In this document: positions 1 through 18,819 of the stretch, one piece after another
Position numbering within the stretch: the stretch's first letter is position 1
How the letters are laid out: the number at the start of each line of letters is the position of its first letter
Source: an uncultured bacterium
GTDB lineage: Bacteria; Zixibacteria; MSB-5A5; JAABVY01; JAHJOQ01
NCBI GenBank assembly: GCA_965369655.1
Contig: CBDUQR010000001.1
Span: 192,001-256,000 of the forward strand
Direction: 5' to 3'
Length of the DNA: 64,000 nucleotides
Notes under the pieces: model-generated
The model's input: only the letters and a program-made list of their open reading frames with translations
Told to the model about the DNA's origin: nothing
Database searches by the model: none
Made by a program: the position numbers and the translations under genes

Positions 1-754
1 TTGTGAGCATGTCCACAGCACTTAGTCCATCGCGCTGCCCGATCTCATTCTGCCAATACCTGAATGGTGGGAACACATCAATAGTAGGATCGCCATTCTT
101 GCTGAATGCATCATCGCTGTAGTGCATCACTGAGTTGAAGTCGTATGGGCCGAACACTTCGCCCGGAAAAGTCGAACTGGGCGAGTGGATTTCGAAATTG
201 TGCATATCGACGGAATCCATGTTTGTCCAGTTTATCCATACGTAGCTGCCGCGATCCTCACGGCTCTGCTCGTGCCAGAGTCCGAGCGCATGTCCGAGTT
301 CGTGAGCGATGATGAATTCATACGACCAATTGTAGATATTAACAACCTGTTCTCCGCCGATACAACCGACGTACGAACTGTTACCTGTTGAACTTTGAAT
401 ATGAATGTAGTTGGTATGGGTGTCTAAAGGAACGAAATCTACTCCGGAGACTTCCTCCCAATTGGACATTGCCTGAAGAGCTCTTGCTTGATTCGTCGGA
501 TTTACATTTGTGTCGAATTCATAGGGGACCACGCCATTGGTCCACAACTGGTTGTACACACAACCGAGTGTCATTTGCTGTTCAAAATCGATAGGGACAA
601 TGATGTCCCCTTCGATAATCTTGAAGCCTTCAGGTATTCCGTCAATTTTCTCACCGGAACCGGGGGTTCCACCCGCAAATGCGATGCATGTCAGCAGCAA
701 AATCATTGTCGCTGCGATAGCAATCCTTCCGGTAATTGTTGTTACGAAGTTCAT
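1..754 (-). CDS. Secreted astacin-family (M12A) zinc metallopeptidase, 3' end outside the window
   Basis: Absent from the ORF track because it runs off the edge. My translation from ATG 754 (purine-rich RBS GGAGAGAGAG upstream) gives a signal peptide MNFVTTITGRIAIAATMILLLTCIAFA, pro-region IIEGDI, the astacin signature HELGHALGLWHEQSREDR and the Met-turn YDFNSVMHY. Confidence 0.93.
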   Translation of the reverse strand, partial: MNFVTTITGRIAIAATMILLLTCIAFAGGTPGSGEKIDGIPEGFKIIEGDIIVPIDFEQQMTLGCVYNQLWTNGVVPYEFDTNVNPTNQARALQAMSNWEEVSGVDFVPLDTHTNYIHIQSSTGNSSYVGCIGGEQVVNIYNWSYEFIIAHELGHALGLWHEQSREDRGSYVWINWTNMDSVDMHNFEIHSPSSTFPGEVFGPYDFNSVMHYSDDAFSKNGDPTIDVFPPFRYWQNEIGQRDGLSAVDMLT

Positions 755-944
755 TTTCTCTCTCTCCCATTCAAGTCTGTTTTGTGAATTGTCCAGGGAC
801 TGTCGCCTGGATTGTCCGTGCAGTAACACTCTACTGCAGTTTGCACTTCTTCTCCATCCTGTCTCCTTCCCTCGTAATTGATTGTGAATTTCTGTATCCG
901 GGTTTCTCATCTCTCATTCCCTCGTTATGTCGTTCACTTATCCC

Positions 945-971
945 AACGACCGGGAATTGCGTTTTCGGAGA
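945..971 (-). promoter_or_regulatory. Putative ECF-type promoter of cassette A, upstream of the astacin gene
   Basis: Minus strand TCTCCGAAAA-N13-CGTT. The same motif with the same spacing recurs at 5318-5344. Confidence 0.6.
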
Positions 972-1094
972 TAGTGACGAAGAATATTACGAGCAAAGTA
1001 CTCGGGATGGGATTATTCAGTGCGCGCAGCGGCTATGCCGCGACGAGCGTTATTTGAGAGATTCGAGTTGGAGTAGGTCGATATGGCAGGGGCG

Positions 1095-4000
1095 TTATCG
1101 CCAGTCGCCGAGAGCGATAAATGCCGCCCAACTGTATGGATGATCGGCAAGGCCGTTCTTGCGAAGATCAGCTATCCGTTCGAGTTCGATCCTTCTGATT
1201 TTCTCGGCCAGTGTCTCGGTGGTGCAGGAATATAGCTCAGCCATGATAGTAGCAGCGGACTGGTCGGGCACAGACCATAGCGCGCTCACGACGGTTCTTG
1301 CCCCTGCCATCTGAAATGCGCGCCTTAGACCGTAGACTCCTTCCCCTTCCTGGACACGTCCAAGTCCCGACTCGCATGCGGACAACACGACCATGTCGGC
1401 GCCGTACAGGTTCATTCCCGACACCTCGTAGGCCGTAAGAACTCCATCGTCGATCCCGGCGCTGTCTGCGCCGTCGCCGTAATGATTTGCCCCGGCAAAA
1501 AACAAACCTGACTGCAGCAACGGGTTCTCTCCGGCGTACGGTTCCGATCCTTCATTCGCATCGGCATCAGCTTCTGATTCACATTGACCCGCAACATAGT
1601 AGCCGTGCGTTGCCAGATGGATACACCTCATGCCGGAAGCACGAGTTTTCAGTACGTCTTCACTCGCTTCCGCCCCGAGAAAAACGGTGACTGGTTCGAG
1701 AGAATTAGCTTGCCAATTGACTGCGATCTGTTCGACCTCGCGTCTCGTTCCCGGCAGTCTGACTAATTTGATATCACTGAAATACTCACATCCTGAGCGC
1801 AGATTTCTTGCCGCGTAGACATCGCTTTCTGCCGAGACATACGCAGGACTGTCGAGCAAATGTTGTCGCGCATAGACATCTGCGTCGTAGTCTGGATCAC
1901 CGATGGCGAGCAGGCCTGAGCCTTTGATGGCGTCATCTTTTAATCGAATAAGTTCGCGTCCTGTCGCAAGATAATGGATCGAGAATCTCTCGATGAGATA
2001 GTCTCCGCTATCATGGATCAATCCGGAAAACGATATGAGATTCAGCCCGCCGTCTGGAGAAATAAACACCATCCGCCTGTCCGAAGTGTAATCCTCGACA
2101 GGATGCACGAGATGGTGATACAGTTCGCGGGCGATGATTGCATAAGATTCTCTGTCCGGCTGCAGAGGCATGTGCCGCAGCTTCGAGAGTCGGAGCATAT
2201 GCTGACGATATTCGGATATCAACGTATCGATACTCGAAGCCCTGCCGAGATTCAGGGCGACAGGGTCTCTCTCCGAATCGATGACGATTGCCATGTAGTG
2301 TGTGACGCTGGTATCCGACTCTGGCAACCTGTAGTTGTACTTCACATATTCTATGAGCGCTGATCCATCGGGCAGGAGCGATCCGATCCGATCGGCACTG
2401 ATCTCTGTTTGCTGTTCTCTGAACAAGGCACTTCTGCTCAGCAGCTGAGCTTCGAGATCGTCCGCAATCCTGTTCAATGAGTCCATCTGCAATCGCAACG
2501 CCTCTGACTCATAGCTTGCCGCCTGCACGTACAGTTCAGAGATATCAGCTTTGACAGACCTGATCTGCTGCGTGAGTGCTCTGGAAGTCGAATCAGTTGT
2601 CAGCGCTGCAATCTTACGACTTTCAAACATACCGTCAAAGACCTGTCCCTTGCACGCCAGGACAATATCGGCAGCCGCTTTCGCACTGTTCGGGTTATCC
2701 AATCCGGCATCCATGAAACATGACAGGTAGTTGTCGACAGAGTTTCTCAGGTATCCCGCATATGTCAGAGCGTCTCTCTCGGATAGCGTGATCGAATTCT
2801 CAATGAAATTGCTGCGCCTGATCACGCAGGCCCGCATCGCAGCATCAAGGGCATCGGCGTACATGTCCTCCAGTCGAAGCAATGTAGATTTCGTTTCGAG
2901 CGCTCTTGCCACGAGATGATGTTCCGATCCATACATCGCCTCCCAGATACCCTGGGCGAGATTCAACAGCGAGTCAGCCTCATCGTATCTGCACTGATAA
3001 ATCTTGAGCCTTGCCAGATTGTGCAGACAGGACGCAGGAGCGGGATGTTCGGGTCCGAGTATCTCCTGCCATATCTTTAACACCTGATTGTACAGCGACT
3101 CAGCTTCATCAAACCGGGACTCTCTGCTCTGGAGCGACGCGAGGATGAACAATGTCCTGGCGACATCGGGGTGAGTCTCTCCCAGAGCCTCTCTCCTGAT
3201 CGCAAGCGCATGCCTGAAAAGACTGTCCGCTTCGGATCGCTTACCGACTCGCATGCAGACGATTGCGAGGTTGTGCACCGCTGTGCCGACACTCGGATGC
3301 TTCCGGCCAAGTCTGTTTTCTAGGTGCCGGAGCGCCAGCCTGCTGAGTGGCTCAGCCTCGTCGAGTTTGCCGAGCTTCAGATAGAGGCTCGCGAGATTAT
3401 GCCGGACAGTCGCGGTAGATGGATGTTCGGAACCGTAGACTCTCTCGATAACCGGTAGCGCGCGCCTGTACAACGGCTCAGCCTTAGAGTACATGCCGAG
3501 GAACACGTAGATGTCCGCGAGATTGCTGGCGTTCTTCGCCGTTTCGGGGTTGTCTGCGCCCAGAAGTTTCTCCTTGATGGCCAGAGATCGTAAGGAGAGA
3601 TCCTCCGCTTCAAAATACCTGCCGCGATCCATCGTCACGGTCGCCAGATTGTTGAGCAGTTGCGCAACCCTGATATGATCAGTGCCAAAGGCTTTCTCGT
3701 TAATGGTCAGCGAGCGTCTGTAGAGATCTTCCGCCTCACGGTAGTCGCCTAAGTAGTAGCACAAGCCAGCCCTGTTCGTGAGGATCATTGCTACATCAGG
3801 GTGATCCGGTCCGAGCACATTCTGCCTGATTTCAAGCGCTCGTTTCAGGAGCGAATCACTCTCGGCGAATTTGCCCTGTTTCAGCATGGTGATTGCGAGG
3901 TTGTTCAGAATACCGGCTATGTCGTTGTGATCTGCACCGAGACGATCTCTCCTGATCGACAGGGCGCGACGCCAGAGCGATTCGGCTTTGACATACTCCG

Positions 4001-4247
4001 CCCGCTCCTCGCAACACTTAGCCAGAACATCGAGAACCCTCGCCACCAAAGTGTCGGAGCTTCCATACTCCGCCTCGGCTCTCTCCAGCAAGTTACCTGC
4101 AAGAGCATACGCTGAATCAAGATCCATCACCTTCTGCAGAGAATCAGCAACATGGATAAGAGCGCTGAGCGTCTGCGCGTGGCTGGTTCCATGCGCTGCG
4201 AACAGAATTAGAATACCCATACAGACTATTCGCGCGATCTGTTTCAT
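1095..4247 (-). CDS. Exported TPR-CHAT (caspase-like, clan CD) protease
   Basis: ATG 4247 follows AGGAG. Signal peptide MKQIARIVCMGILILFAAHGTSHA-Q, then about 10 42-aa TPR repeats (e.g. ALEIRQNVLGPDHPDVA). CHAT domain has catalytic HLATHG and LSACESG, plus GLRRAFQMAGA and HPYSWAAF. Confidence 0.92.
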   Translation of the reverse strand: MKQIARIVCMGILILFAAHGTSHAQTLSALIHVADSLQKVMDLDSAYALAGNLLERAEAEYGSSDTLVARVLDVLAKCCEERAEYVKAESLWRRALSIRRDRLGADHNDIAGILNNLAITMLKQGKFAESDSLLKRALEIRQNVLGPDHPDVAMILTNRAGLCYYLGDYREAEDLYRRSLTINEKAFGTDHIRVAQLLNNLATVTMDRGRYFEAEDLSLRSLAIKEKLLGADNPETAKNASNLADIYVFLGMYSKAEPLYRRALPVIERVYGSEHPSTATVRHNLASLYLKLGKLDEAEPLSRLALRHLENRLGRKHPSVGTAVHNLAIVCMRVGKRSEADSLFRHALAIRREALGETHPDVARTLFILASLQSRESRFDEAESLYNQVLKIWQEILGPEHPAPASCLHNLARLKIYQCRYDEADSLLNLAQGIWEAMYGSEHHLVARALETKSTLLRLEDMYADALDAAMRACVIRRSNFIENSITLSERDALTYAGYLRNSVDNYLSCFMDAGLDNPNSAKAAADIVLACKGQVFDGMFESRKIAALTTDSTSRALTQQIRSVKADISELYVQAASYESEALRLQMDSLNRIADDLEAQLLSRSALFREQQTEISADRIGSLLPDGSALIEYVKYNYRLPESDTSVTHYMAIVIDSERDPVALNLGRASSIDTLISEYRQHMLRLSKLRHMPLQPDRESYAIIARELYHHLVHPVEDYTSDRRMVFISPDGGLNLISFSGLIHDSGDYLIERFSIHYLATGRELIRLKDDAIKGSGLLAIGDPDYDADVYARQHLLDSPAYVSAESDVYAARNLRSGCEYFSDIKLVRLPGTRREVEQIAVNWQANSLEPVTVFLGAEASEDVLKTRASGMRCIHLATHGYYVAGQCESEADADANEGSEPYAGENPLLQSGLFFAGANHYGDGADSAGIDDGVLTAYEVSGMNLYGADMVVLSACESGLGRVQEGEGVYGLRRAFQMAGARTVVSALWSVPDQSAATIMAELYSCTTETLAEKIRRIELERIADLRKNGLADHPYSWAAFIALGDWR

Positions 4248-4294
4248 TGATCTCCTCTCCACGACCCGATGCTCCCACCCGAGAATAATGCAGC

Positions 4295-5239
4295 TTAGAA
4301 CGCTACTGCTGCGACTGCCGAAGCGGCGTACTCAGCACCGATTCTGTACGTAAAGACGATGCACGCCTGGCTGTCGGATTCGGGGTCCAGGACGACAGCG
4401 ACCGAGTCATATTCCATGTCGAGCATCTGCAGGCGTTTCGACGGAAGCGACAGAATCCAGCCTTTGATCTCTCGAGTTGTATCGACAAGGCTTGCCTTGT
4501 GTATCGCAAATGGACTACCGGATTCGTCGACCAGCCTTATCATAACCGACTTGAATCTTCCCTGCGGCGTTTCCGGCTCATCTGACGTGTCGATAGTATA
4601 CTCGCCATCAAGCAACATAATGACTTCCGAGAATGCTGCTTCTGCGGCGAGCAGATGATCGTCGAAAAGAACCTGCACGTCTTTTTCCTCGTCGGGACTT
4701 CGTGTCAGATTCGAGACAAACAGCCCGGCATCCATCTCGGCTACGGTCTCAAGCTTTGCGACCCGCAGGCCATCGATCGTATCCGGTCCGATACGGATAA
4801 ACTGTATGCTGACAAACGCAAGGATAACCACAGCCGCCGCGCCGAATAATGCGACGCGGGGAGCGGCGACAGGTATTAAGAAGCTGTGGATTCGCGACCA
4901 CATAGATATTCTCTCTTTTTGATCCACAGAAGGCTCAGAGAGAACATCCCGGAGCGCAGGAGCTTCCGACACGGGACAATTTACGAAAGCCTGCATAGTC
5001 TCCGGGTCGGTGAGTGACGCCAGATCCTCAGCCATATGAAGAATCTCTCGCCTGAATTCGGCGGACCGGATCAGAGCTTCTTTGACCTCGTCCTTTTGCG
5101 CACCCGTGGCGACACCGAGCAGCCAGGCTTCAATCGAAGCGTCCGATGGCCTCGTGAAATCATCCCGGCTCCGGCTCGCCCTGATCAACCGGCCGAGCTT
5201 CCTGTCTTCACCGGAGCTGTTTTGCTGATTCTCCGACAT
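4295..5239 (-). CDS. Putative single-pass membrane anti-sigma factor
   Basis: Directly downstream of the ECF sigma. The N-terminal PSDASIEAWLLG...EVKEALIRSAEFRREI follows the zf-HC2/ASD pattern but has no His/Cys ligands. TM helix at about aa 129-148, followed by a ~165-aa C-terminal domain. Confidence 0.65.
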   Translation of the reverse strand: MSENQQNSSGEDRKLGRLIRASRSRDDFTRPSDASIEAWLLGVATGAQKDEVKEALIRSAEFRREILHMAEDLASLTDPETMQAFVNCPVSEAPALRDVLSEPSVDQKERISMWSRIHSFLIPVAAPRVALFGAAAVVILAFVSIQFIRIGPDTIDGLRVAKLETVAEMDAGLFVSNLTRSPDEEKDVQVLFDDHLLAAEAAFSEVIMLLDGEYTIDTSDEPETPQGRFKSVMIRLVDESGSPFAIHKASLVDTTREIKGWILSLPSKRLQMLDMEYDSVAVVLDPESDSQACIVFTYRIGAEYAASAVAAVAF

Positions 5240-5317
5240 CGATATATCCGCCTCTCATATCCATTCTCAAATCGGTCATGCCGCCGTGGCAGCCTTTATC
5301 TCATCTCTACTCAACAT

Positions 5318-5344
5318 AACGGTTGGTCGAGCGTTTTTCGGAAA
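5318..5344 (-). promoter_or_regulatory. Putative ECF-type promoter of cassette A, between sigma and anti-sigma
   Basis: Minus strand TTTCCGAAAA-N13-CGTT, matching 945-971. Confidence 0.6.
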
Positions 5345-5380
5345 TCAGATGACAAAAAACTCGGCATCGCAGGCGATATC

Positions 5381-6004
5381 TCACGATTGCAGTATAGATA
5401 CAAGGTCAATTCCTTCCCCTGCAACGATTTTCTTCAGTTGTTTCCGGCACTGTCTCAGATCATCTGACACCTTCTTATTACTCTCCTCTGGCCATCCGAG
5501 AACCAGTGCCATTTCTCTCGGCGTATATTCATCGGCCGCGAGTTGGAGCAATAGCTGACAATGCTTCCTGAGTCTGGAGACACATTCCTTCACACATTCA
5601 ATAACGCGCTTTAGATTCGTCCTGTCGAGCGGGTCAATGTCGGAATCTGACGCGATCCAGTCGAGATCAGGGCTGTTCATATCTGACTCATATTGCACAG
5701 TCATGCTTTCCCGTTTCTTCGCTCGAAGATAGTCCAGGCATTTGCGATGGGCGAGTATGTAGAGCCATGCGGCAAACGGCTTGCCGCAATCGGAGTATTG
5801 CCGCAGGACTCTGAAATTGTCCCGCGCACAGTGCAGGATTATATCCTGGGTCAGATCCTGCGATTCTGCTCTCGACAGTCGCCGCATGCTGCCGGGGGGC
5901 TTCACCTTCAGCAATCGGCATGTAAACGAGTAGAATTGTCTGAAAGCCTCGTCCGGGCTGCTATACAGTATATCCAGGAACGATGGCCAGGATTGGTTCA
6001 GCAT
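5381..6004 (-). CDS. ECF-type RNA polymerase sigma factor
   Basis: 207 aa. Region 2 SQDLTQDIILH...FAAWLYILAHRKCLDYLR; region 4 CVSRLRKHCQLLLQLAADEYTPREMALVLG...VSDDLRQCRKQL. Confidence 0.9.
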   Translation of the reverse strand: MLNQSWPSFLDILYSSPDEAFRQFYSFTCRLLKVKPPGSMRRLSRAESQDLTQDIILHCARDNFRVLRQYSDCGKPFAAWLYILAHRKCLDYLRAKKRESMTVQYESDMNSPDLDWIASDSDIDPLDRTNLKRVIECVKECVSRLRKHCQLLLQLAADEYTPREMALVLGWPEESNKKVSDDLRQCRKQLKKIVAGEGIDLVSILQS

Positions 6005-6057
6005 CTCATCGCCAAATTAGTTCTGCGTATTTCCTGACTAATCAGTGGTCGGACTAA

Positions 6058-6086
6058 AGAATATCTCCTGAATCTCCTTATGTCAA
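6058..6086 (-). promoter_or_regulatory. Sigma70-type promoter for the ECF sigma gene
   Basis: Minus strand TTGACA-N17-TATTCT, about 54 nt before the start codon. Confidence 0.6.
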
Positions 6087-6100
6087 CTGATTTGGAGTGT

Positions 6101-6199
6101 AGTCTTGAGTAGTGACCCGTCCCTCAGGATCGGGATCAGCGACCGATAGCGAAGCGGAGTGGTCCTGCCATCTTCTGTTCATGGCAGAACCACTTCCGT
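6101..6199. repeat. GTAG-type REP-like palindromic element, copy A
   Basis: Contains the core AGCGAAGCGGAGTGGTCCTGCCATCTT and the inverted half ATGGCAGAACCAC, shared with copies at 18848, 34869, 58295 and 61815. Confidence 0.75.
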
Positions 6200-6213
6200 T
6201 TTTTTCCTGCTAA

Positions 6214-8001: not shown

Positions 8002-8004
8002 TTT

Positions 8005-9156
8005 CTATTTCTCCTTTTCCCAGTCAATTGGGATTAGTGCCATTGCTCGGGTATTCCCGAAGTCATTGTGTTTGAAATCGCGAACGATCTGCTTTGTCGC
8101 CATGTCTATCACATGTACCGGCCATGTCCCGAATCCCCAACCATTCAAAACAGCCATCTGTTTGCCGTTGGGTGTAAAGGCAAGGTATCGCGGCATAAAC
8201 CAGGGTGCTCCAAGGTTGTAGTAATCTGCATTAACGAAAGATTCGAAGATACCGGTTGTCAGGTCGTAAACGTCAATTCCACCCATCTCAGGGTTATCAA
8301 ACCCACCGTTCCACGGCATGAACAGGCGTTTCCCGTCCGGATGCCAGATGTACTGTCCGTACGATTGCCATGGGGCTAACCTCAACTCAAACTCGACGCT
8401 GTAATCAGTCGTATTGAGAATCTGGAAGAAAAGCACGCCCGGTCCCTTAATTCCCAGCACGACCAGCGAATCCCCGGAGGGGACAAATGACATGACACCG
8501 GGGACAAGCGGGTCGCCTGCCAGGTTTGTAAGTGGGATTGCAGATATCAGTTCAAGGCTGTCAGATTCGAAGGAGTACACGTACAGACTGTCCTTATGTG
8601 ATTTGGCAACTACCACAACTTTCTTACGTGGATGAAAGGTCATGTTTTCGGAGTGGAATGAGCCATCATTTTCCTCGAAAACCGGGGTCAGTTCCGGAAC
8701 CTTGTAGATAGCTGTGCGGGTTGTTAGGGAAGTGGCAATATACTGACCATCCGCAGAAATCGCCATTTGGATACCGCCATGCTCAGGATCGAATGCGAGT
8801 GTGTCTCCAGTACGGGTATCTGTCACCCATGTTGAGGGCTGTGAGTGCTCACAATTTATTACTGATCTCCGGGTGTAGTATGAGTACTTCCCGTCAGGTG
8901 AAAAAGTCACAGCGTCGAACGGATAGCAGGAGTAGCAAGTCGAATCAATCAGCAGCCCGCTCTTAAGGCTGTAAGTCGTGACAACATAGTCGACCGGCTC
9001 GTAGTTCGGCCGGACATAACTGTACAACAGGTGATAATCCGGCTCGCTCGGACACTCCGGACAAACCGGGCAGTCGTCATCGCCGCAGGAAAGCAGCAGG
9101 GCAAATGCCGATGCCGCGACGAGCATAATAACGATTAGATTAGTTTTGTAGTTCAT
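8005..9156 (-). CDS. Lipoprotein with a YncE/WD40-like beta-propeller
   Basis: Lipobox LLLSC followed by CPVCPEC. Propeller blade motifs FSPDGK, ISADGQ, WHPDGK, FTPNGK. Lies 3 nt upstream of the S8 gene, so probably co-transcribed. Confidence 0.8.
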   Translation of the reverse strand: MNYKTNLIVIMLVAASAFALLLSCGDDDCPVCPECPSEPDYHLLYSYVRPNYEPVDYVVTTYSLKSGLLIDSTCYSCYPFDAVTFSPDGKYSYYTRRSVINCEHSQPSTWVTDTRTGDTLAFDPEHGGIQMAISADGQYIATSLTTRTAIYKVPELTPVFEENDGSFHSENMTFHPRKKVVVVAKSHKDSLYVYSFESDSLELISAIPLTNLAGDPLVPGVMSFVPSGDSLVVLGIKGPGVLFFQILNTTDYSVEFELRLAPWQSYGQYIWHPDGKRLFMPWNGGFDNPEMGGIDVYDLTTGIFESFVNADYYNLGAPWFMPRYLAFTPNGKQMAVLNGWGFGTWPVHVIDMATKQIVRDFKHNDFGNTRAMALIPIDWEKEK

Positions 9157-9177
9157 GTTCCTCCTTTTGTGGCGAAC

Positions 9178-9220
9178 GTGTCAGGTCACACTCGCGCTCC
9201 GCGCGATCAAGACCCGACAC
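9178..9220. repeat. Second-family REP-like palindrome
   Basis: Near-perfect inverted ends GTGTCAGGTC...GACCCGACAC around an inner CGCGC-rich hairpin, in the leader of the lipoprotein gene. Confidence 0.5.
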
Positions 9221-9381
9221 AACGCAAAATGCTGTCGAATGATAATACAGATGCGCGGACACGCGCAATAGATTATGCATAAGCCACCTCCGTTCCCGAG
9301 CCGATAGTATCCACCGACTCAATCTCACCACCGGTGCAATTCGACATTCCCTTTCATCATTGGCGACACTGGTACAGTTGT

Positions 9382-9465
9382 ATGGTAACGCACACAGGAG
9401 CGTTTTGTCAATGGTGATTTGAGCATTGGGAGTCTTCTTGACAATCGACCAGTCAATCATACCTT
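9382..9465. promoter_or_regulatory. Back-to-back sigma70-like promoters
   Basis: Minus strand TTGACA-N18-TACCAT (9411-9382) points to the lipoprotein/S8 operon. Plus strand TTGACA-N16-TACCTT (9438-9465) points to the sigma-like gene. Confidence 0.45.
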
Positions 9466-9510
9466 TATGTAGTGCCCTTAAGAATGTGCAACGACGCGCG
9501 CCGACAGGAT

Positions 9511-10578
9511 ATGGACAACAAATCCGAGATCATCAGGGGTTTTCTGAAAGCTCCGTTGAATCGCGATAGATTCGATGAATTCTATGCTCTGATCTACCGT
9601 CACACGGTCGGATATCTCAGCTATCTGAGACGAACAGGATACACGCTTCCAGCCGAGACCGGCGGCAGAGATAATCAGCTCTCCGATCTCGCGATAGATA
9701 TACTCGGAACACTGCTCCGGTGCGATTCGACGCGACCGTTTTATCTGATATTCGATTGTTTCGACAGGCACGGTATCACGGACTTCGATCGTGCCGCACC
9801 GGATGATCTATACTCCTGCCTGATCTCATTGCTACATGGGCATATACATCAGGAACTCAGCAAGCTGCTGAAAGCAACAAACCCTCAGATAGACAATCTG
9901 AAGCGGAGATTCAAAGATATCCTGAAAGGGAAGAATTATGGCTCTCTGAATACGGCGTCTGATACGTCGGAATGCGTGTATCTGCTGAAATATGAGGATG
10001 CACTTAGGGAGAATATGGTGTCATCGTCGGGCGATTTCCTGCTCTGGATAGCCGAGGATGCCTATCTCCAGAGCAACACGAGAAAAGCCTGGTGCAACAT
10101 GATTTTCGAGATGATAAACGAACAGACAGATCATCAGAATTTCACTCGGAAGCATGAACTTCTGGGCACAGTCGTATCAATCAACAGCCGCCAGATGGAA
10201 ATCGATACTATCCCGATGTACAGGCCTCGGAGTCCGATGCAGGAGTCGCTTCACCGCGAAGCGCAGAAATGCAAATCCGTGACGCTCGAATGGGCAAAGA
10301 ATGAAATCCTGAGCCATTTCGTCGAGAAAGGGAATATCAACAAGAGCGATGCCGTCGGACTGATGGCTGCGCTTGAAAAATATCTGAACGATTTCTGCGA
10401 GCATGGCGACACAGACCCGCTTCCGCGATATTTCAGGGAATGTATGCCTGATGAGACTCACAGGATGTATCTCAGCCACTACAAGTACATTTTCGAGACG
10501 CTTGCGGACAAATCGCTCGAATACCTGAAAGTTATTCTGAGAAAAAGAGCTACAGTTTTGGGTCTTGGAGACTATTAG
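9511..10578 (+). CDS. Divergent, enlarged sigma-factor-like protein (355 aa)
   Basis: The N-terminal helices FDEFYALIYRHTVGYL...LSDLAIDILGTLL...LISLLHGHIHQEL resemble ECF region 2. It lies directly upstream of a ZAS protein. I cannot recognise a canonical region-4 HTH, so the sigma call rests largely on context. Confidence 0.5.
   Translation: MDNKSEIIRGFLKAPLNRDRFDEFYALIYRHTVGYLSYLRRTGYTLPAETGGRDNQLSDLAIDILGTLLRCDSTRPFYLIFDCFDRHGITDFDRAAPDDLYSCLISLLHGHIHQELSKLLKATNPQIDNLKRRFKDILKGKNYGSLNTASDTSECVYLLKYEDALRENMVSSSGDFLLWIAEDAYLQSNTRKAWCNMIFEMINEQTDHQNFTRKHELLGTVVSINSRQMEIDTIPMYRPRSPMQESLHREAQKCKSVTLEWAKNEILSHFVEKGNINKSDAVGLMAALEKYLNDFCEHGDTDPLPRYFRECMPDETHRMYLSHYKYIFETLADKSLEYLKVILRKRATVLGLGDY
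10550..10577 (+). promoter_or_regulatory. Putative ECF-type promoter of cassette B, inside the 3' end of the sigma-like gene
   Basis: CTACAGTTTTGGGTCTTGGAGACTATTA, 21/28 identical and ungapped versus 13852-13879. Confidence 0.6.
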
Positions 10579-10607
10579 TACAATGAACGGACACAGGAGG
10601 GTGGATA

Positions 10608-11462
10608 TTGCATCCGTCTAAAGCAGAACTGAGGCTGTTTGTCGAGAACGCCATGCAGGATGCCGCCGCGCGCGCGCGTATCTCTGAGCACATAGGGAAC
10701 TGCGAATTCTGCTCGGAATTCTGTGAGGAGTACACGTTATATCTCGTCTCTATCGAGGACACGGATAGATTAGATCTCTCACAGGCAGCTTTCAATGCCG
10801 CTGATGATATATTCAGGCACGCTCTGCGAGGGGTGATTATTGATATGCAACCTCTCGCAGGCGATATCGATACGCCTCTCAGGCTTGCAGCCGATGGCAA
10901 GGAGGAATTCCGGCCCGAGATTGTTAATCTCGCAACGCTCTGCTCCGAACAACCCGAAGCTATTCTCCGCGTCATGCGCGACAGCGGTCGTGGCATCGAC
11001 TATGTGCAGTTGATCTCCGACGACCCGGAGTTGTCCCAGAACGTGATGATACGGATACCGGAGATCGGATGGGAGTCGCTCACCGATGATGAAGGCAAAG
11101 CGATCATCGAAAAACAGATCGGCGATGACATATCAAACCTCAAGTGGCAGATTAAACTGCCGGATGCCGTATTCTCGATGAAGCCGCTCGAGTATGATCC
11201 TGACGAGACCAGATGCTCAGGCGAAACCGAACTGACTACGGCCGACTCCGACAGGATTCATGTCGAGCTTCAAAGTAAGACCGAAGGCAAACAGATCGTA
11301 ATCAAAATTCTCGAACTAGACGGCAAGAAAGATTTCGGCGATGTCCGGGTCGCCATATCGCAGGGCGGTGTCACAACTACATCGTCAACGTCCGGAAACA
11401 AGACAATCTCGTTCGATTTGACCGACACAGAGAGTGTCATAAACATCAGGATATTCCAGTAA
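10608..11462 (+). CDS. Soluble zinc-binding (ZAS/zf-HC2) anti-sigma factor with C-terminal beta-rich domains
   Basis: TTG start after AGGAGG. Complete ZAS motif H2-x25-H28-x3-C32-x2-C35. No TM helix. Linker motif LRLAADG at aa 91-97. Confidence 0.8.
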   Translation: MHPSKAELRLFVENAMQDAAARARISEHIGNCEFCSEFCEEYTLYLVSIEDTDRLDLSQAAFNAADDIFRHALRGVIIDMQPLAGDIDTPLRLAADGKEEFRPEIVNLATLCSEQPEAILRVMRDSGRGIDYVQLISDDPELSQNVMIRIPEIGWESLTDDEGKAIIEKQIGDDISNLKWQIKLPDAVFSMKPLEYDPDETRCSGETELTTADSDRIHVELQSKTEGKQIVIKILELDGKKDFGDVRVAISQGGVTTTSSTSGNKTISFDLTDTESVINIRIFQ

Positions 11463-11466
11463 CACA

Positions 11467-13842
11467 ATGTCCCTGCTGCAATTTGCAAAAGAATTCGCGA
11501 AGCTCAAATCGGACCTTGCCGCCCAGCCGGTTCCCGATTTGCAGCTCCTGTGTCTGATTGATTTCTGGCCGAGCCTCGCGGATCACGCTGCCGAGAGTTC
11601 ATACCGGAGTTATCTCGATGAATATGTGCCACTGCTGCTACACCTGATCTCAGCCGAGAATCTCTCCGATCTCACCATGCACGAGCTATTGCACTTACAA
11701 GATGTGCTCGCCGATCTTTCCGCGCTTGAATCGGTGAATGACAAACTCAAAGATCAACGCAGGCTTGTTTCGCAGGAACTTGCGCGACGGTATTTCTATG
11801 CCGGAGCGGTCGAAGATGCCCTGACAATATGCATCGAACCATCGTGGGCGGCAGAAGCAGTAGGTCGGCGTTCCGTAGCAGGCGAAGCCTGCAAGAAACC
11901 CGACACCAGCACAACAAAGAGTAAGTGTCGCGTTTCTCTCCCTCGTACCTCGGCATCGGAACACGACCTACAAGATCTAAGCGAGTTCGAAGCATTTGAA
12001 TCAATCATCGAACATACCCGAGGCCGCGACAACTCGCTCGACGCTTTCCTGAGCAATCTCCATGACGATTGGCAGGGCGACCGCGACGCGATCTATCACG
12101 ACCGGATCAACGCGCTGTTTGTCGACAAGGATGACGCCGGTCGTGCATGGCGCGGCAGGATGAAATCACTCACCGGCAAGGTCGAGCTGTTCGGCAAATC
12201 GGCTACGACCGACGAGATCACGTTCGACAACCAGATCAAATCGCCGGATGATCCATTTATCGGCGTGGCGTATCATTCGCTCGATGCTGTGCGGCAATCG
12301 ATGAAACGCGCAAGGTTTAGGAAACAGTCTGAGGCGTTCTATCATGCTCATTTCGCGGTCGAGAATAGCCAGCAGACATTCACCGGCGATTCGATTGGGC
12401 TGGCGACAGGGCTGCTGACTTACGCGCAGCTTCTGGAACCTGAGATCATGCGGCAGGACAAGTTCATCGGGGCGGATATCGCTGTCACGGGTGGTGTGGA
12501 TGATTCCGGCGCAGTAACACAGGTCAACGACGATACATTGAAGCTCAAAATCGAACGGGCGTTTTTCTCGCCGGTCAGGCATATTATCGTGCCGGATGGG
12601 AATCTGTCTGCTGCGCGTGAGCATATCGAGAAATTGCGAGAGAGATATCCGCGCAGGCGGCTCAGGCTGATCGGAGTTGAATCGCTGACCGATGCAATCG
12701 AGAACAGGAATATCATCCGCGAGGAAAAAGTCTGCATCGGCGAATTCGTCACGAAACAAGTTTACCACTACAGTCGCACAGCCAAAATTCAAGTACCGAT
12801 ACTGCTGATACTCGCATACTTCCTCCTCTGCATGATCTACCCAAAAGCATGGGTGGGATTTGATTGGAATCCGGCAAGTGTGGAACTGACGGAGACTGGA
12901 TTTGTCGCTCTGAACGCTGATTCAAGGTCCTTATGGTCAGTTGAATATGAGTGTGAATTGCTCTATGCGAGATCGCAATGGACAATGAGCGATTTGAACG
13001 GCGATGGCATGAATGACGTAGTTTTCATGCCTATGGCGTCCCCCAATGCTCCCTGCAGAAGCAACGCTCATCTTTTCGCGTACGACCACACAGGCAAAGA
13101 ACTGTTCGCAAGGCAGGGGGCGGTTCTTGGTGAATATGTGAGTGATACATCTGCTAATTTCCCATATTCGGCGGGTTTAATTGACGTTGTACAAGTCAGT
13201 GGAACGAGTGTCATCGTCAGCAGGGTCTATGCATCCTACCCTGCTCGTTACCACATCAAAATGTGGAGTACTGATGGCGACTCTCTCGGTTGGTACATAA
13301 ACTCAGGATATAGCGGTGTTGTGAATGAAAAATGTTTCGCTGTCGATAGATACGGCAACCTGATGTTTCTTGCGCTCAACAATCGTATGGGTTGTGCCTG
13401 CTTTTTCGTAATTGCTCCGGATTCGAGCTATGGCGTGTCACCACCTTATCCTGAATGGCTTCGTGGCCAAAGAGGACTTAGACACGGGAACCAACTATGC
13501 TATCTTCTGTTTCCGCGCACAGATATTAACCGCGAGATAGAACTGGATTACAATGGACCATTCCGTATTGTCATCAACTCCAGTGACGAGATTCGAGTCG
13601 ATATAGGTGAATCTAAAGAACCCGAATGCAACCTAAGCTATTTCCTTGACGAGAACTTCCGTGTTACACATGTAAAAGCCGATGACCGGTTCATCCCACT
13701 TAGGCGTCGCCTCATAGACGAAGGGAAACTCCCTTCAGTGGACTTGTCTACGTATCTGGCCAATCTTGTCGACTCAGTTACCTACTGGACCGACTCCGGC
13801 TGGGTAACCGAAGGCGAACTCCGCGCCTTGGAAAAAAACTGA
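11467..13842 (+). CDS. Membrane-anchored Lon-type (S16) protease domain without AAA+ module, fused to an extracytoplasmic beta-rich domain
   Basis: FTGDS309IGLA...IAVTGGVDDSGAVTQV...LKLK361IERA...IIVPDGN aligns to Lon-C GPSAG...AMTGEI...G.V...LKEK...VLIP..N. No Walker A motif and no signal peptide. TM helix at about aa 441-458. The C-terminal domain contains FG-GAP-like DLNGDGMNDVV. Confidence 0.8.
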   Translation: MSLLQFAKEFAKLKSDLAAQPVPDLQLLCLIDFWPSLADHAAESSYRSYLDEYVPLLLHLISAENLSDLTMHELLHLQDVLADLSALESVNDKLKDQRRLVSQELARRYFYAGAVEDALTICIEPSWAAEAVGRRSVAGEACKKPDTSTTKSKCRVSLPRTSASEHDLQDLSEFEAFESIIEHTRGRDNSLDAFLSNLHDDWQGDRDAIYHDRINALFVDKDDAGRAWRGRMKSLTGKVELFGKSATTDEITFDNQIKSPDDPFIGVAYHSLDAVRQSMKRARFRKQSEAFYHAHFAVENSQQTFTGDSIGLATGLLTYAQLLEPEIMRQDKFIGADIAVTGGVDDSGAVTQVNDDTLKLKIERAFFSPVRHIIVPDGNLSAAREHIEKLRERYPRRRLRLIGVESLTDAIENRNIIREEKVCIGEFVTKQVYHYSRTAKIQVPILLILAYFLLCMIYPKAWVGFDWNPASVELTETGFVALNADSRSLWSVEYECELLYARSQWTMSDLNGDGMNDVVFMPMASPNAPCRSNAHLFAYDHTGKELFARQGAVLGEYVSDTSANFPYSAGLIDVVQVSGTSVIVSRVYASYPARYHIKMWSTDGDSLGWYINSGYSGVVNEKCFAVDRYGNLMFLALNNRMGCACFFVIAPDSSYGVSPPYPEWLRGQRGLRHGNQLCYLLFPRTDINREIELDYNGPFRIVINSSDEIRVDIGESKEPECNLSYFLDENFRVTHVKADDRFIPLRRRLIDEGKLPSVDLSTYLANLVDSVTYWTDSGWVTEGELRALEKN

Positions 13843-13851
13843 AGAACATCT

Positions 13852-13879
13852 CTACAGATTTCCTCCTTGGTGTCTATTA
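13852..13879 (+). promoter_or_regulatory. Putative ECF-type promoter of cassette B, upstream of the secreted target gene
   Basis: CTACAGATTTCCTCCTTGGTGTCTATTA, matching 10550-10577. Confidence 0.6.
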
Positions 13880-13917
13880 TTGGTTTAGAAGTTAAACCTG
13901 AACTGAGGAGATGTCCA

Positions 13918-15333
13918 ATGACTTCAAAATGTTTCTATGTGTTCATCACACTGCTCTTTCTTGCTCCGTATGCTAATGCAACAGACCCGCCCGGAAATGT
14001 GCTGGTCTATGCAACGTACGTGGGCGGCAACGGTTATGACCAGTATATGTTTGATTCAACTCTAGTCGGAGTTTTGTATGAGCGCGGTTACAATGCCACA
14101 GTAACAGACAGGACCGAAACAACGGAGATAACTGCTCTACTGTTGGAGAACTATGATCAGCTTTGGTTTTTCTCTACTCAAGAAGGTCCGAGCGTGGAAC
14201 TAGCCCCTGAGGAGATCAATGCAATTCTGGCATTTCAATCCCAGGGCAAAGGGCTATTCATAGCTGCTGAAAATGCACCACATTATACGTACACTGCTAA
14301 CTTGGTTGCCTGTTCACTAGGTGTGACTTTTTGGGGAATTGTCGATCACGCTGAAGGAGATGCTGGTGGTATCATTATCTTCCCTGAGTTTGAAGACCAT
14401 CCCTTGTTTTGCGGGGTGTCCCAGATTTCTGCATATAGGAACGAATGCGATATGTCTGTTGTGCCGCCTGCTGATGTAGTCGCAACCTACAACGGTCACA
14501 ATCTAATCGCTGTACGAGACGCCGGCGCAGGCCGGTGTGTTTTTGACGTTAGTTTCGTCAGAGCATTCGATGGTCAGATTATGAGGGGTGACAATGCGCA
14601 ATACTACGGCAATATTGCTGATTGGTTGCAGTTCTGCGTTCCGTCCATCACTATGATTTCTCCTGACCCAACCTACGTCTACTGGGCTTTTGCTATGATA
14701 CCGATGGTGGAAAAAGTATACATTGGTGATTTCGGTTGTGGCTATACAGCAAGCGATATAAATCCGTGGTCTGTCCTTCTGAACGGATCGGTTTCGCCAG
14801 TAGATTTCGAGATTCTTCCCGGTATGGAAGGTTTCACAGGCGAAGTGATGGAACTGCACTATCCTCTCGCAGATTTCATCTGGACATACCCTGTTCTTTA
14901 CGACACAACCTTGCAGGAATATGGCGTTGCTGGTATGTTTACCGATGGTCATACTTTCGCTGCCTCGGGAGATGTCACGATCATTGGCAAGAACTCTCGC
15001 GCAACTCGTAATGTATACCTCAAGCCAGACAACGACGAAATCAGCATTAAGCCATCAGAGTTCGCGCTGTACCAGAATCAGCCGAATCCATTCAATCCGA
15101 CGACTGAGATCAGTTTCAATCTGCCTGTGATGTCGAATGTCAGGCTTGATGTCTACAATATCACTGGACAGAAAGTCACAACGCTCGTCGATGGACCGAT
15201 GCAGCCGGGACCGCATTCGGTGACATGGAACGGCATGTCCGACAGCGGCGAACCGGTCGCGTCCGGCATTTATTTCTATCGTATCGAGGCCGGAGATTTC
15301 ACGGAGAACAAGAAGATGCTGCTTCTCAAATAG
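13918..15333 (+). CDS. Secreted protein with a GATase/DUF4350-like N-domain and FlgD-Ig/T9SS-like C-terminal sorting domain
   Basis: ATG after GAGGAG; signal peptide ending ANA-T. C-terminal YQNQPNPFNPTTEISF...VASGIYFYRI...KKMLLLK. The N-domain call (LLENYDQLWF...GKGLFIAAE) is tentative. Confidence 0.75.
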   Translation: MTSKCFYVFITLLFLAPYANATDPPGNVLVYATYVGGNGYDQYMFDSTLVGVLYERGYNATVTDRTETTEITALLLENYDQLWFFSTQEGPSVELAPEEINAILAFQSQGKGLFIAAENAPHYTYTANLVACSLGVTFWGIVDHAEGDAGGIIIFPEFEDHPLFCGVSQISAYRNECDMSVVPPADVVATYNGHNLIAVRDAGAGRCVFDVSFVRAFDGQIMRGDNAQYYGNIADWLQFCVPSITMISPDPTYVYWAFAMIPMVEKVYIGDFGCGYTASDINPWSVLLNGSVSPVDFEILPGMEGFTGEVMELHYPLADFIWTYPVLYDTTLQEYGVAGMFTDGHTFAASGDVTIIGKNSRATRNVYLKPDNDEISIKPSEFALYQNQPNPFNPTTEISFNLPVMSNVRLDVYNITGQKVTTLVDGPMQPGPHSVTWNGMSDSGEPVASGIYFYRIEAGDFTENKKMLLLK

Positions 15334-18700: not shown

Positions 18701-18819
18701 GTTTCTTTGAGAGCATCGCGAAACGCTGACCGCTGCTTTTTATCTGTGAGCCATTGATCAACTTTGTGGCCAAGAATTGCCGTAGCCGCGAGTTCTATAA
18801 TCTTGAAAATCATGCTCAA
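15709..18819 (-). CDS. NLR-like STAND (NB-ARC) NTPase with TPRs, a winged helix and a C-terminal TIR domain
   Basis: HNLPFPQNPLFTGRE, Walker A GLGGIGKT, Walker B LLIYDNAD, LLTSR, LGLLPLA and MHD-like LHRL, followed by about 2 TPRs. C-terminal TIR FDVALSFAGEQR...VFYD...FISKDY...WTNHE. Start is TTG 18819 or ATG 18813. Confidence 0.88.
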   Translation of the reverse strand: MSMIFKIIELAATAILGHKVDQWLTDKKQRSAFRDALKETLKDLAKQGYDTGGHGSVDHSFIINESVNDELWRKLLDPGITEPVDFDRLWKDLEDTYRDFTIGDNEKEAIMFFVQRLEDRMWSQQPLQQLLSAKVSRRLDLFLKMIFERMGMRQQIEIRNPAELPLDVRGYIDSEAFKPYEIPGVTLHNLPFPQNPLFTGREDLLKDLHESLSKSGSTALSQPQAISGLGGIGKTQIAVEYAYQHIKDYKFIIWVNSESETTITSSYSEIARLLNLPEKDDKELGVVVAAVKTWLETHNEWLLIYDNADKPEIIKEYQPRSGQGQTLLTSRASAFGNLAKALEVTEMAEDEAIDFLLKRANIEEPTDDQHRTAKDISNELGLLPLAVDQAGAFVEKTRCSLDDYLNDLKEKGIEVLKDKRYSPDDYDHTVATTWSMSLETLQQKSKVAIDVLSLAAYFAPDAIPLGLFRKRVDSFDDNLKSVAYDTFELDKALGALQSYSLIRRKRDTDEFSLHRLLQAVIRDNHTESGDARKWAELAIVCTSETLPDERDYRTWSECETILPHILSLVQHTDSLEISNETVAQLFSRTGYYLHDRADYGQAELLYKRALKIDENIYGSDHLKVAADLESLAILYETQGRYDDAEPLYERAYEIREKAIEVLKDEHYSLVLRGRHNMAHLGYTITVVKGEPRRYLVLARKSDFGKDDPQDMIRWIYDFRQVNGDSSFRVLVTSLLIKTHFDEQKNQMHYETIRFALRMISEEPGATEFTFKTDDYESPPHIPISKGRTLRSLILKFILDINSEMPEQPISIFDLCHNFPNEQEEMSNWLRNLNRAGLLERVPSNTNIKYVMINGLSGAQSFRIDPSRYAEIKAELARVEHEEAVPKVKVGTVGGKKFDVALSFAGEQRNYVRQVKKTLDEEGDINVFYDEDYEVELWGKDLANEFSRIYGKESERVVIFISKDYVEKGWTNHEFKSALSKVIAQKAEGYILPMRFDNSELEGLSSLVGYIDISGLKPEECARKIIVKVKGSAAVKN

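Follow-up and report, generated by a model that had tools for sequence, protein, structure and literature searches.

Two cassettes of sigma or sigma-like protein, anti-sigma-type protein and protease in a Zixibacteria genome

Introduction

Regulated proteolysis of anti-sigma factors is a main bacterial route from envelope signals to transcription. The sigma-E pathway (RseA, DegS, RseP and ClpXP) combines an envelope signal, stepwise anti-sigma proteolysis, a VAA degron and ClpXP, as described in a bioRxiv preprint (10.1101/2024.05.08.593097), and there the anti-sigma factor lies within the regulon of its own sigma factor. Proteases of two other kinds have been placed in such pathways. DdvA of Myxococcus xanthus is a natural fusion of an anti-sigma domain with a periplasmic TPR-CHAT domain, and its authors propose that the CHAT domain is the site-1 protease (PMC11506125). 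CRISPR-associated effectors have a similar logic in the cytoplasm. CalpL is an ATPase-less Lon protease that cuts CalpT in an LAAA motif to expose an LAA degron, and in Craspase (Cas7-11, Csx29, Csx30 and CASP-sigma) a TPR-CHAT protease cleaves a sigma inhibitor and frees an extracytoplasmic function (ECF)-like sigma factor (both in 10.1101/2024.05.08.593097). Here we describe two cassettes, one built around a TPR-CHAT protease and one around a Lon-like membrane protein that we call receptor-Lon, in a 64,000-nucleotide (nt) stretch of an uncultured member of the phylum Zixibacteria (contig CBDUQR010000001.1; G000:C1:192001-256000, hereafter the window). The genome is 2.99 Mb in size and 99.5% complete, and close homologues bear Zixibacteria names.

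Fusions of the DdvA kind are reported in PMC11506125 only from Myxococcota and one Comamonas. In the literature searched we found no description of either the receptor-Lon trio or a CHAT cassette split into separate genes, and the main text of the ECF reclassification paper (PMC7826278), the supplements of which may list gene neighborhoods, does not contain the term CHAT.

Results

Two cassettes with one layout

Cassette 1 occupies the minus strand from 6086 to 1 and cassette 2 the plus strand from 9511 to 15333. The features of cassette 1, in the direction of reading (lengths in amino acids, aa), are:

6086-6058, minus strand: sigma70-like promoter TTGACA-17-TATTCT before the ECF gene (promoter scan, 10/12)
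5381-6004, minus strand: ECF (group IV) sigma factor, 207 aa (TIGR02937, Sigma70_r2)
5318-5341, minus strand: CCGAAA-N14-CGTT, a promoter-like motif of ECF type, 79 nt upstream of the anti-sigma start
4295-5239, minus strand: single-pass membrane anti-sigma-type protein, 314 aa (sequence; alignment of 14 homologues)
1095-4262, minus strand: secreted TPR-CHAT (clan CD) protease, 1055 aa (PF12770; TPR_12; signal peptide)
945-968, minus strand: CCGAAA-N14-CGTT, second copy of the ECF-type promoter-like motif, 35 nt upstream of the astacin start codon (ATG at 910)
1..910, minus strand: 5' part of an astacin (M12A) metalloprotease gene that runs off the window (Astacin 1.4e-43)

Those of cassette 2 are:

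9511-10578, plus strand: sigL, sigma-like protein, 355 aa (model fold; alternative start GTG at 9472)
10550-10576, plus strand: two-block promoter-like motif CTACA-N17-CTATT, overlapping the last sigL codons, 31 nt before the anti-sigma start
10608-11462, plus strand: soluble zinc-type (ZAS-like) anti-sigma protein, 284 aa (alignment of 18)
11467-13842, plus strand: receptor-Lon, 791 aa (model fold; dyad alignment)
13852-13878, plus strand: two-block promoter-like motif CTACA-N17-CTATT, close behind the Lon gene and 39 nt upstream of the cargo start codon (ATG at 13918)
13918-15333, plus strand: secreted cassette 2 target, 471 aa (signal peptide; type IX secretion system (T9SS) type A sorting domain)

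A sequence-only reading of this locus had proposed that two unrelated proteases are built into one four-gene logic, each cassette carrying a private motif in two copies. Open reading frame (ORF) calls and family scans found all of the elements named there in their places, and matrices built from other genomes rank the motif sites 1 and 2 for cassette 1 and 1 and 3 for cassette 2. The topologies put forward in that reading also fit: the CHAT protein has a signal peptide and its anti-sigma partner a single membrane helix, and the Lon domain precedes a membrane helix and is paired with an anti-sigma protein having no membrane segment. A sigma70-like promoter had been ascribed to both cassettes. 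That of cassette 1 stands (6086-6058), but before sigL none passed the scan; TTGACA at 9438-9443 with a weak second hexamer can be read there. The cassettes had further been described as divergent around a subtilase (S8) operon. The divergent point exists and lies at 9157-9510, but the S8 operon (9156-6214) is upstream of cassette 1 on the same strand and is read in the same direction.

The gene identities other than that of sigL (those of the two anti-sigma genes as anti-sigma-type), the topologies, the conserved gene triplets and the motifs with their specificity are established by the results given below. On balance we favor the view that the cassettes are two independent signaling modules of one shared design. 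In this design a housekeeping-type promoter would provide a constitutive sigma (or sigma-like) protein that is kept inactive by the anti-sigma protein until a dedicated protease, sensing something outside the cytoplasm, removes the latter. The freed sigma protein would then read a private promoter present in two copies, the first before the anti-sigma/protease operon, giving feedback and re-arming, and the second before the gene of a T9SS-exported protein, giving the output.

The adjacency of the cassettes could itself be functional, through cross-talk or as one regulon around the S8 operon: they are 3.5 kb apart, they flank the operon of a secreted S8 protease and both end in T9SS cargo. However, the 23 cassette 2 loci with flanks of up to 7 kb gave no ECF, anti-sigma or CHAT match, and genomes having both cassettes carry them on other contigs or, in one case (G010), 23 kb apart on one contig. 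Moreover, the two motifs differ and neither is found before the S8 operon. Adjacent cassettes were not seen in the other genomes examined, and we consider a functional adjacency very improbable.

Cassette 1 pairs an ECF sigma factor with a secreted CHAT protease

The cassette 1 sigma protein exceeds the cut-offs of the ECF family (TIGR02937 48.4 bits, cut-off 42.9, residues 39-192; Sigma70_r2 26.5 bits, cut-off 24), and a profile of 12 of its homologues matches the solved ShbA, SigH, SigW, AlgU, RpoE and CnrH (1e-5 to 5e-4). Its gene is preceded by the sigma70-like box and not by CCGAAA-N14-CGTT; similar TTGAC-N17-TAT boxes were read by eye upstream of the ECF gene in other loci. The 314-aa protein encoded next has a conserved N-terminal cytoplasmic region of ~80 aa, a membrane helix at ~130-150 and an outside domain of ~165 aa. 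Its gene always adjoins the ECF gene in the loci of the phylum, and the homologue alignment shows that the N-terminal domain lacks the HxxxCxxC zinc motif. The third protein belongs to the CHAT family by a wide margin (PF12770 212.3 bits, cut-off 24; TPR_12 282 bits) and its catalytic dyad, His886 and Cys963, is invariant in 16/16 homologues. A search of the PDB with the full CHAT protein returned TPR proteins (kinesin light chain) and no CHAT structure at E <= 1. The last gene, when followed beyond the window (G000:C1:190301-192910), encodes an 869-aa astacin (Astacin 151 bits) that contains dockerin-like repeats and ends in a T9SS sorting domain (Por_Secre_tail 29.1, cut-off 27), and hence is T9SS cargo; a signal-peptide-like stretch starts at residue 53.

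The motif CCGAAA-N14/15-CGTT occurs three times in the window versus 0.32 expected, a count reached in 0/100 shuffles. Genome-wide, the longer pattern TCCGAAA-N14/15-CGTTR has three matches, two of which are the cassette 1 sites, and the reversed control has none. A two-block matrix made from 14 sites of seven other loci, this genome excluded, ranked 5318-5341 first (23.8 bits) and 945-968 second (22.7 bits) in the genome, the next unrelated site scoring 18.6 bits and the maxima of five shuffles 18.9-20.2. Two further pattern matches, 39819-39842 of the window and C5:16690, were taken as chance; both lie inside ORFs. In the other loci the strict pattern was found before the anti-sigma gene in 6/11 and before the gene following CHAT in 5/9, and near-matches were seen by eye in several loci lacking it. 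As a separate observation, three loci (L053, L054 and L057) each contain two copies of TTTCCGAAATCG-N-CGTT(A/G/T)GG after the CHAT gene, and in L057 three dockerin genes follow CHAT in a row. These repeats and the dockerin row suggest multi-gene ECF regulons.

Homologues of the cassette 1 anti-sigma protein are found in 24/285 genomes of the phylum (21/198 genomes of good quality) and 15/130 genera. Within 1.5-kb flanks the order ECF, anti-sigma, TPR protein was present in 13/26 other loci. These 13 loci, plus one (L063) chosen for a CHAT match upstream of the ECF gene, were examined with long flanks, and 12 of the 14 have the order ECF, anti-sigma, full-length TPR-CHAT; of the remaining two, one has CHAT before the ECF gene and the other is truncated where its contig ends. 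Three of the 12 ordered loci have two CHAT genes in tandem. The genes found after CHAT are diverse: T9SS proteins in L051 (S8-Kelch) and L052, dockerin proteins in L054 and L057 and unrelated genes in L053, L056, L059 and L062.

Cassette 1 is a split form of the known DdvA-like design. Like DdvS-DdvA (PMC11506125) it consists of an ECF sigma factor, a single-pass anti-sigma-type protein and a periplasmic TPR-CHAT domain, for which a clip outside the membrane before intramembrane proteolysis has been proposed. Unlike DdvA, the anti-sigma protein (4295-5239) and TPR-CHAT (1095-4262) are separate genes, the CHAT protein having its own signal peptide; the anti-sigma protein has no zinc motif; the His/Cys dyad is complete, whereas the DdvA site is described as incomplete; and the target is a T9SS protease rather than a CBASS/CRISPR island. 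In our model the membrane anti-sigma protein would hold the ECF sigma factor and the secreted TPR-CHAT protein would serve as site-1 protease, cutting the anti-sigma protein in its outside domain. An intramembrane protease would next release the sigma factor, which would transcribe the anti-sigma/CHAT operon and the astacin gene, each from its own copy of CCGAAA-N14-CGTT. Relative to sigma-E, a clan CD cysteine protease would take the place of the DegS-type serine protease.

Several results count against this model. The 314-aa protein matched the NCBIfam model NF052375 ('antisigma') only at 0.0059 (16.6 bits, cut-off 100). In 5/11 loci no strict motif precedes the anti-sigma gene, and the gene after CHAT does not encode a secreted protein in L053, L059 and L062. 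TPR-CHAT sits in a sigma-dependent operon and so could be an output of the ECF sigma factor instead of its activator. On this alternative, cassette 1 is an ordinary ECF/anti-sigma pair served by the usual site-1 and site-2 proteases, and TPR-CHAT is one of its regulated outputs, a secreted protease as the astacin is, and does not gate the switch. The position of the CHAT gene behind an ECF-type motif makes it a sigma target, tandem CHAT pairs in three loci are as expected of cargo families, and in two loci the gene after CHAT is itself that of a protease (astacin here, the S8 protease in L051). However, the order ECF, anti-sigma, CHAT is kept in 12/14 long loci while the following gene varies, no T9SS or dockerin tail, such as the outputs have, is present on the CHAT proteins, and DdvA fuses an anti-sigma domain and TPR-CHAT in one protein (PMC11506125). 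We judge the output alternative unlikely, although it is a serious competitor, and retain CHAT as the probable activating protease.

Cassette 2 encodes a zinc-type anti-sigma candidate and a Lon-like membrane protein

The 284-aa zinc anti-sigma-type protein has an HxxxCxxC motif and no membrane segment; H2, H28, C32 and C35 are invariant in 18/18 aligned members. The zinc site of ZAS proteins, for the spacing of which RsrA and ChrR serve as comparison, has the form H/C-x(23-26)-H-x3-C-x2-C and lies in a helical N-terminal domain that binds a sigma factor. A second conserved element, [LMI]-A-A-[DH]-[GS] at residues 93-97, is also present in all 18, with A94 and A95 invariant. Pfam zf-HC2 matched 3/18 members (best 0.0018), and the N-terminal part of the family profile matches other anti-sigma-sized ORFs in the phylum. 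One such ORF lies outside the window on the minus strand (G000:C1:183605-183760; 167 aa, 5e-7) and is probably an ordinary ZAS anti-sigma protein.

Receptor-Lon is composed of a cytoplasmic helical region, a Lon proteolytic domain (~200-422, with Ser309 and Lys361), a membrane helix (~424-457) and an outside FG-GAP-like beta-propeller (~465-791). The sequence shows no signal peptide and has charged residues ahead of the helix, and on these grounds the protease domain is placed in the cytoplasm. By sequence the protein has no Pfam match, Lon_C included, but G307-D308-S309-I310 and K361 are invariant in 33/33 aligned sequences, and there are 91 relatives in a collection clustered at 90%. The structural model, with a predicted local distance difference test score (pLDDT) of 86.9, gave a Foldseek match to the E. 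coli Lon P domain (1.2e-8, TM-score 0.79), and the VIA comparison aligned 178 residues with 6x27_D (Z 20.8, root mean square deviation (rmsd) 2.5 A), which identifies a Lon (S16) P domain. A PDB profile search gave LonB (1z0b) at 0.0079 and, for the propeller, 6mlt and 2z8r. LonA, LonB and the ATP-independent MtaLonC (6x27, 3wu4, 1z0e and 4fwh) share the Ser-Lys dyad and, at Z 18-21 and rmsd 2.5-3.5 A, the P-domain fold, but receptor-Lon differs from them by having no AAA+ core and by its C-terminal membrane helix and outside propeller. Pfam and NCBIfam detected no AAA family in receptor-Lon, which excludes it from the ATP-dependent LonA/LonB class, and residues 68-200 of the model align with the helical Lon lid subdomain only and not with an ATPase core.

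The three genes sigL, zinc anti-sigma and Lon are found together in 17/23 genome loci, four of the other six being cut by contig ends. In L023 the match is of 80 residues. The clear exception, which speaks against a fixed trio, is L013 (contig CAZAZQ010000007.1), where a Lon-like gene (910-aa ORF) has no detectable sigL or zinc anti-sigma gene upstream. A second, distant trio subfamily has the three genes in 6/7 loci, no zinc-protein ORF having been called between sigL and Lon in L065. In this subfamily (L065-L071, from genomes G113, G149, G185, G115, G102, G188 and G061) the sigL-like protein is ~340 aa, the zinc protein ~270 aa and the Lon-like protein ~715 aa, the last lacking profile positions 90-185; T9SS cargo follows the trio in some of the loci. 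The sigL gene occurs in 90/285 genomes and 52/130 genera of the phylum, with the anti-sigma gene directly beside it.

The gene after the trio in the window (ORF 13867-15333) encodes T9SS cargo (TIGR04183 31.1 bits, cut-off 23; FlgD_ig 39.2 bits). Among 14 proteins encoded after Lon in 13 other loci, nine have a T9SS tail and one more has dockerin only. The N-terminal domains of this cargo vary (FG-GAP, Laminin_G, CBM, lactonase-type propeller, BACON/PKD).

A two-block motif precedes the anti-sigma and cargo genes of cassette 2

The first 20 kb of the window hold two copies of the motif CTACA-N17-CTAYT, and the exact pattern occurs six times in the genome. A matrix of 15 sites from 11 other loci, all in other genomes, ranked 10550-10576 first in the genome (24.7 bits) and 13852-13878 third (22.0 bits). 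Across the loci the strict pattern is present before the anti-sigma gene in 7/18 and after the Lon gene in 10/18, with near-matches in L002 and L007.

The evidence for this motif has weaknesses. Shuffle maxima were 17.7-22.4 bits, and thus one shuffled genome (22.4) scored above the cargo site (22.0); no gene follows C26:33156, the site ranked second in the genome; and 11/18 loci have no strict motif ahead of the anti-sigma gene. The cargo site alone is therefore not beyond chance. The pair of sites is beyond chance, because both are on the right strand and lie 31 and 39 nt before start codons. C26:33156, having no ORF behind it, and C7:56858, which lies within a coding region, were taken as chance matches.

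At 10563-10578 of the window, and likewise in L001, L007, L018 and L020, the last sigL codons overlap with the second motif block (GnCTAT), and where the sigL protein is shorter the motif is in the spacer instead. The conserved C-terminus of many sigL proteins, G-[DG]-Y, may thus reflect the DNA motif rather than a constraint on the protein.

The sigL model has a sigma-2-like N-terminal fold, and sigL is predicted to bind the zinc protein

The sigL model (pLDDT 84.8, predicted TM-score 0.40) has three domains: an N-terminal domain (1-123) with a sigma-2-like fold, a middle domain (~125-235) and a C-terminal four-helix bundle (238-355). In the rows of VIA matches spanning residues 1-123, sigma factors fill 11/12 in each of two lists, with Z scores of 4.8-7.5 and more than 20 sigma chains. 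The first list includes ShbA (Z 7.5), pro-sigmaK (Z 7.1, rmsd 3.3 A over 91 residues), SigB (Z 6.8) and BldN (Z 6.6, rmsd 2.7 A) together with SigE, SigI6, CnrH, SigK, RpoS, AlgU and one more; the second list has the same pattern, with sigmaS (Z 6.2), sigma70 (Z 6.1) and sigma32. The model thus argues for a sigma-2-like N-terminal fold but does not prove it.

A complex model of sigL with residues 1-100 of the zinc anti-sigma protein scored 0.71, a mark reached by 116/157 solved complexes and by 2/215 mismatched pairs, and the best of three controls scored 0.00. At least 79% of contacts agreed between runs, and the partner pLDDT was at least 75. The predicted interface comprises sigL residues 15-77, 185-191 and 228-232. 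Zinc anti-sigma/ECF complexes have already been solved, and likeness to these may contribute to the score. Hence, sigL is predicted to bind the zinc protein encoded next to it. The assignment of sigL as a sigma factor, which we infer, is drawn from its fold, this predicted binding and the geometry of the motif.

Several searches failed to connect sigL with sigma factors, and these tell against the assignment. Sequence and profile searches of Pfam, NCBIfam, PADLOC and the PDB gave no family match, the PDB returning only noise. A profile-profile alignment (hhalign) with the ECF family of cassette 1 gave a probability of 0.14%, and Foldseek found no PDB match to the model at E <= 0.001. The VIA Z scores (7.5 at most) are no higher than helical models commonly reach, according to the tool's own caution. 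Sigma70-family proteins combine a sigma-2 domain for core binding and -10 recognition with a sigma-4 domain for -35 recognition; VIA listed no sigma-4-like DNA-binding domain, its coverage of the middle part of sigL being slight. Pfam also found nothing in 17 sigL members and 13 distant relatives, one of which is a 951-aa protein. The relatives of sigL comprise 854 clusters at 50% identity (E <= 0.001), and its neighbors in the ESM Atlas are unnamed clusters only. In the 951-aa protein (P0234) residues 624-947 match the sigL profile (6e-26) and the first 620 residues have no Pfam match; it may be a fused form of sigL.

These results could mean that sigL is not a sigma factor but pairs with the zinc protein in another role, for instance as its adaptor or substrate or as a regulator of some other kind, and that a different factor reads CTACA-N17-CTAYT. 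Besides the failed searches, the length of sigL fits this alternative, 355 aa being much longer than an ECF sigma factor, as do its two domains lacking an assignment. However, the near-exclusive presence of sigma factors among the matches to the N-terminal domain, a fixed neighbor that carries a zinc anti-sigma motif and is predicted to bind that same domain, and a motif of two blocks with rigid 17-nt spacing set closely before two start codons all argue for a sigma factor. The non-sigma alternative seems to us about as improbable as that of CHAT as an output, and in what follows sigL is treated as a candidate sigma factor.

In our model of cassette 2 receptor-Lon would sense through its outside propeller, and its cytoplasmic ATP-independent Ser309/Lys361 domain would cut the soluble zinc anti-sigma protein, the conserved L-A-A-D-G linker being the most likely site. 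This would leave an N-terminal fragment with an LAA-like degron at its end, and clearance of the fragment by ClpXP-type proteases would free sigL. Freed sigL would direct RNA polymerase to both copies of CTACA-N17-CTAYT, one ahead of the anti-sigma/Lon operon and one ahead of the T9SS cargo gene. ClpX is encoded in this genome. ARAGORN, used in a search for the organism's own degradation tag, found no tmRNA in the 100 contigs of the genome.

Relation to CRISPR-associated effectors

The closest described counterpart of cassette 2 is CalpL-CalpT-CalpS (10.1101/2024.05.08.593097), in which an ATPase-less Lon Ser-Lys protease also adjoins a soluble anti-sigma protein and a divergent sigma factor, their counterparts here being the zinc anti-sigma-type protein and the sigma candidate sigL. 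There a cut in the alanine-rich linker of CalpT produces an LAA degron for cellular proteases, and the zinc protein of cassette 2 has its conserved L-A-A-D-G. The two systems differ in the sensor, which in CalpL is a cytoplasmic cA4-binding SAVED domain and here a membrane helix with an outside propeller, and in the anti-sigma protein, which has zinc HHCC residues here and is described as MazF plus DUF2080 for CalpT. Furthermore, cassette 2 has no CRISPR context, no sequence-level link to CalpL was found, and its output promoter and cargo can be identified. In cassette 1 the counterpart would be Csx29. However, Csx29 is described as cytoplasmic and RNA-activated via Cas7-11, whereas the CHAT protein here is exported and no cas genes were noted.

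The sequence-only reading had suggested that such switches were possibly the pool from which the CRISPR effectors were recruited, a claim that the comparisons did not bear out. Were the modules sisters or ancestors of CalpL-T-S and Csx29-Csx30-sigma, the common protease/anti-sigma/sigma logic would be expected, as would the LAA-type motif of the zinc anti-sigma protein that resembles the CalpT cut site. Some weak matches are of this kind: PADLOC CARF_LON matched 5/33 receptor-Lon family members (best 3.3e-4), and a CAS_III-E sigma model matched the ECF sigma factor at 1.7e-4. Against these, LonB, Lon and LonC models match 8, 5, 4 and 3 of the 33 members, the best structural matches of receptor-Lon are canonical Lon P domains, and CalpL is absent among the matches listed for receptor-Lon by Foldseek, VIA and the PDB profile search (E <= 10), an absence that is not a measured distance. 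The Csx29 model NF041237 gave 12.5 bits versus a cut-off of 300 and the CAS sigma model NF041236 21.6 versus 100. In the scan of the ORFs at 1-20337 we noted neither cas genes nor any SAVED or CARF gene, and the anti-sigma protein is of the zinc type rather than the CalpT type. We regard such a kinship as very improbable.

Genes between and beside the cassettes

The operon between the cassettes belongs to neither of them. Its features are:

9411-9382, minus strand: promoter-like TTGACA-18-TACCAT before the S8 operon (promoter scan)
8005-9156, minus strand: beta-propeller protein
6214-8001, minus strand: S8 subtilase with dockerin (Peptidase_S8 1.8e-37 and Dockerin_1)

Between the S8 stop codon and the ECF promoter (6140-6200, minus strand) a run of A is followed by an inverted repeat of 13 bp that is nearly perfect (GTGGTTCTGCCAT / ATGGCAGGACCAC). 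The repeat may be a terminator separating the S8 operon from cassette 1, although the terminator scan did not list it. Directly after cassette 2, on the minus strand (15709-18819), lies the gene of a 1036-aa NB-ARC/TPR/TIR protein that reached 313 bits (cut-off 300) with the NCBIfam model NF040586, FxSxx-COOH system TPR protein, and the TIR end of which matches the PADLOC PDC-S66 and RT-TIR models. It is likely a STAND-type defense or signaling gene.

Discussion

The sequence-only reading saw in these cassettes a modular, recurring class of protease-gated switches controlling the secretome. When the triplets were counted, both proved to recur in the phylum, but within this genome each is single-copy, with a single gene apiece for the CHAT, Lon-like and sigma-like proteins. 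When the downstream genes were classified, they often had T9SS or dockerin tails, but some of those following CHAT were not secreted. Control of secreted surface proteins is thus a tendency and not a rule.

Within this framework we infer all of the proteolytic steps, the cut site and the nature of the signal, as well as the sigma function of sigL. If these steps are as modeled, cassette 2 departs from sigma-E in that it would signal across the membrane in one protein and cut a soluble anti-sigma protein directly, with no site-1/site-2 relay. A broader proposal, which we put forward tentatively and hold less firmly than the shared design itself, is that sigL and its relatives could be a very divergent, unrecognized branch of sigma factors with the promoter TCTACAA-N15-GnCTAYT, controlled by a one-protein transmembrane receptor-Lon relay that would cut L-A-A|D-G to give a ClpXP degron. 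Taken together with the split CHAT cassette, this would point to a general design in FCB-group bacteria in which a sensor-protease gates a sigma factor and the sigma factor drives T9SS cargo, with the CRISPR-associated CalpL and Csx29 as cytoplasmic special cases.

Cassette 1 shows that the DdvA design also occurs in split form, outside Myxococcota and with an intact catalytic dyad. If the model is true, cassette 2 would be a shorter route than the site-1/site-2 relay, the sensor and the protease being one membrane protein. It would also be a non-CRISPR counterpart of CalpL-T-S, and as its promoter and regulated gene can be read from the sequence, the output of the switch is directly testable. 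Both cassettes supply defined motifs for finding regulons in metagenomes, and both link signaling to type IX secretion cargo in a phylum that has no cultured model.

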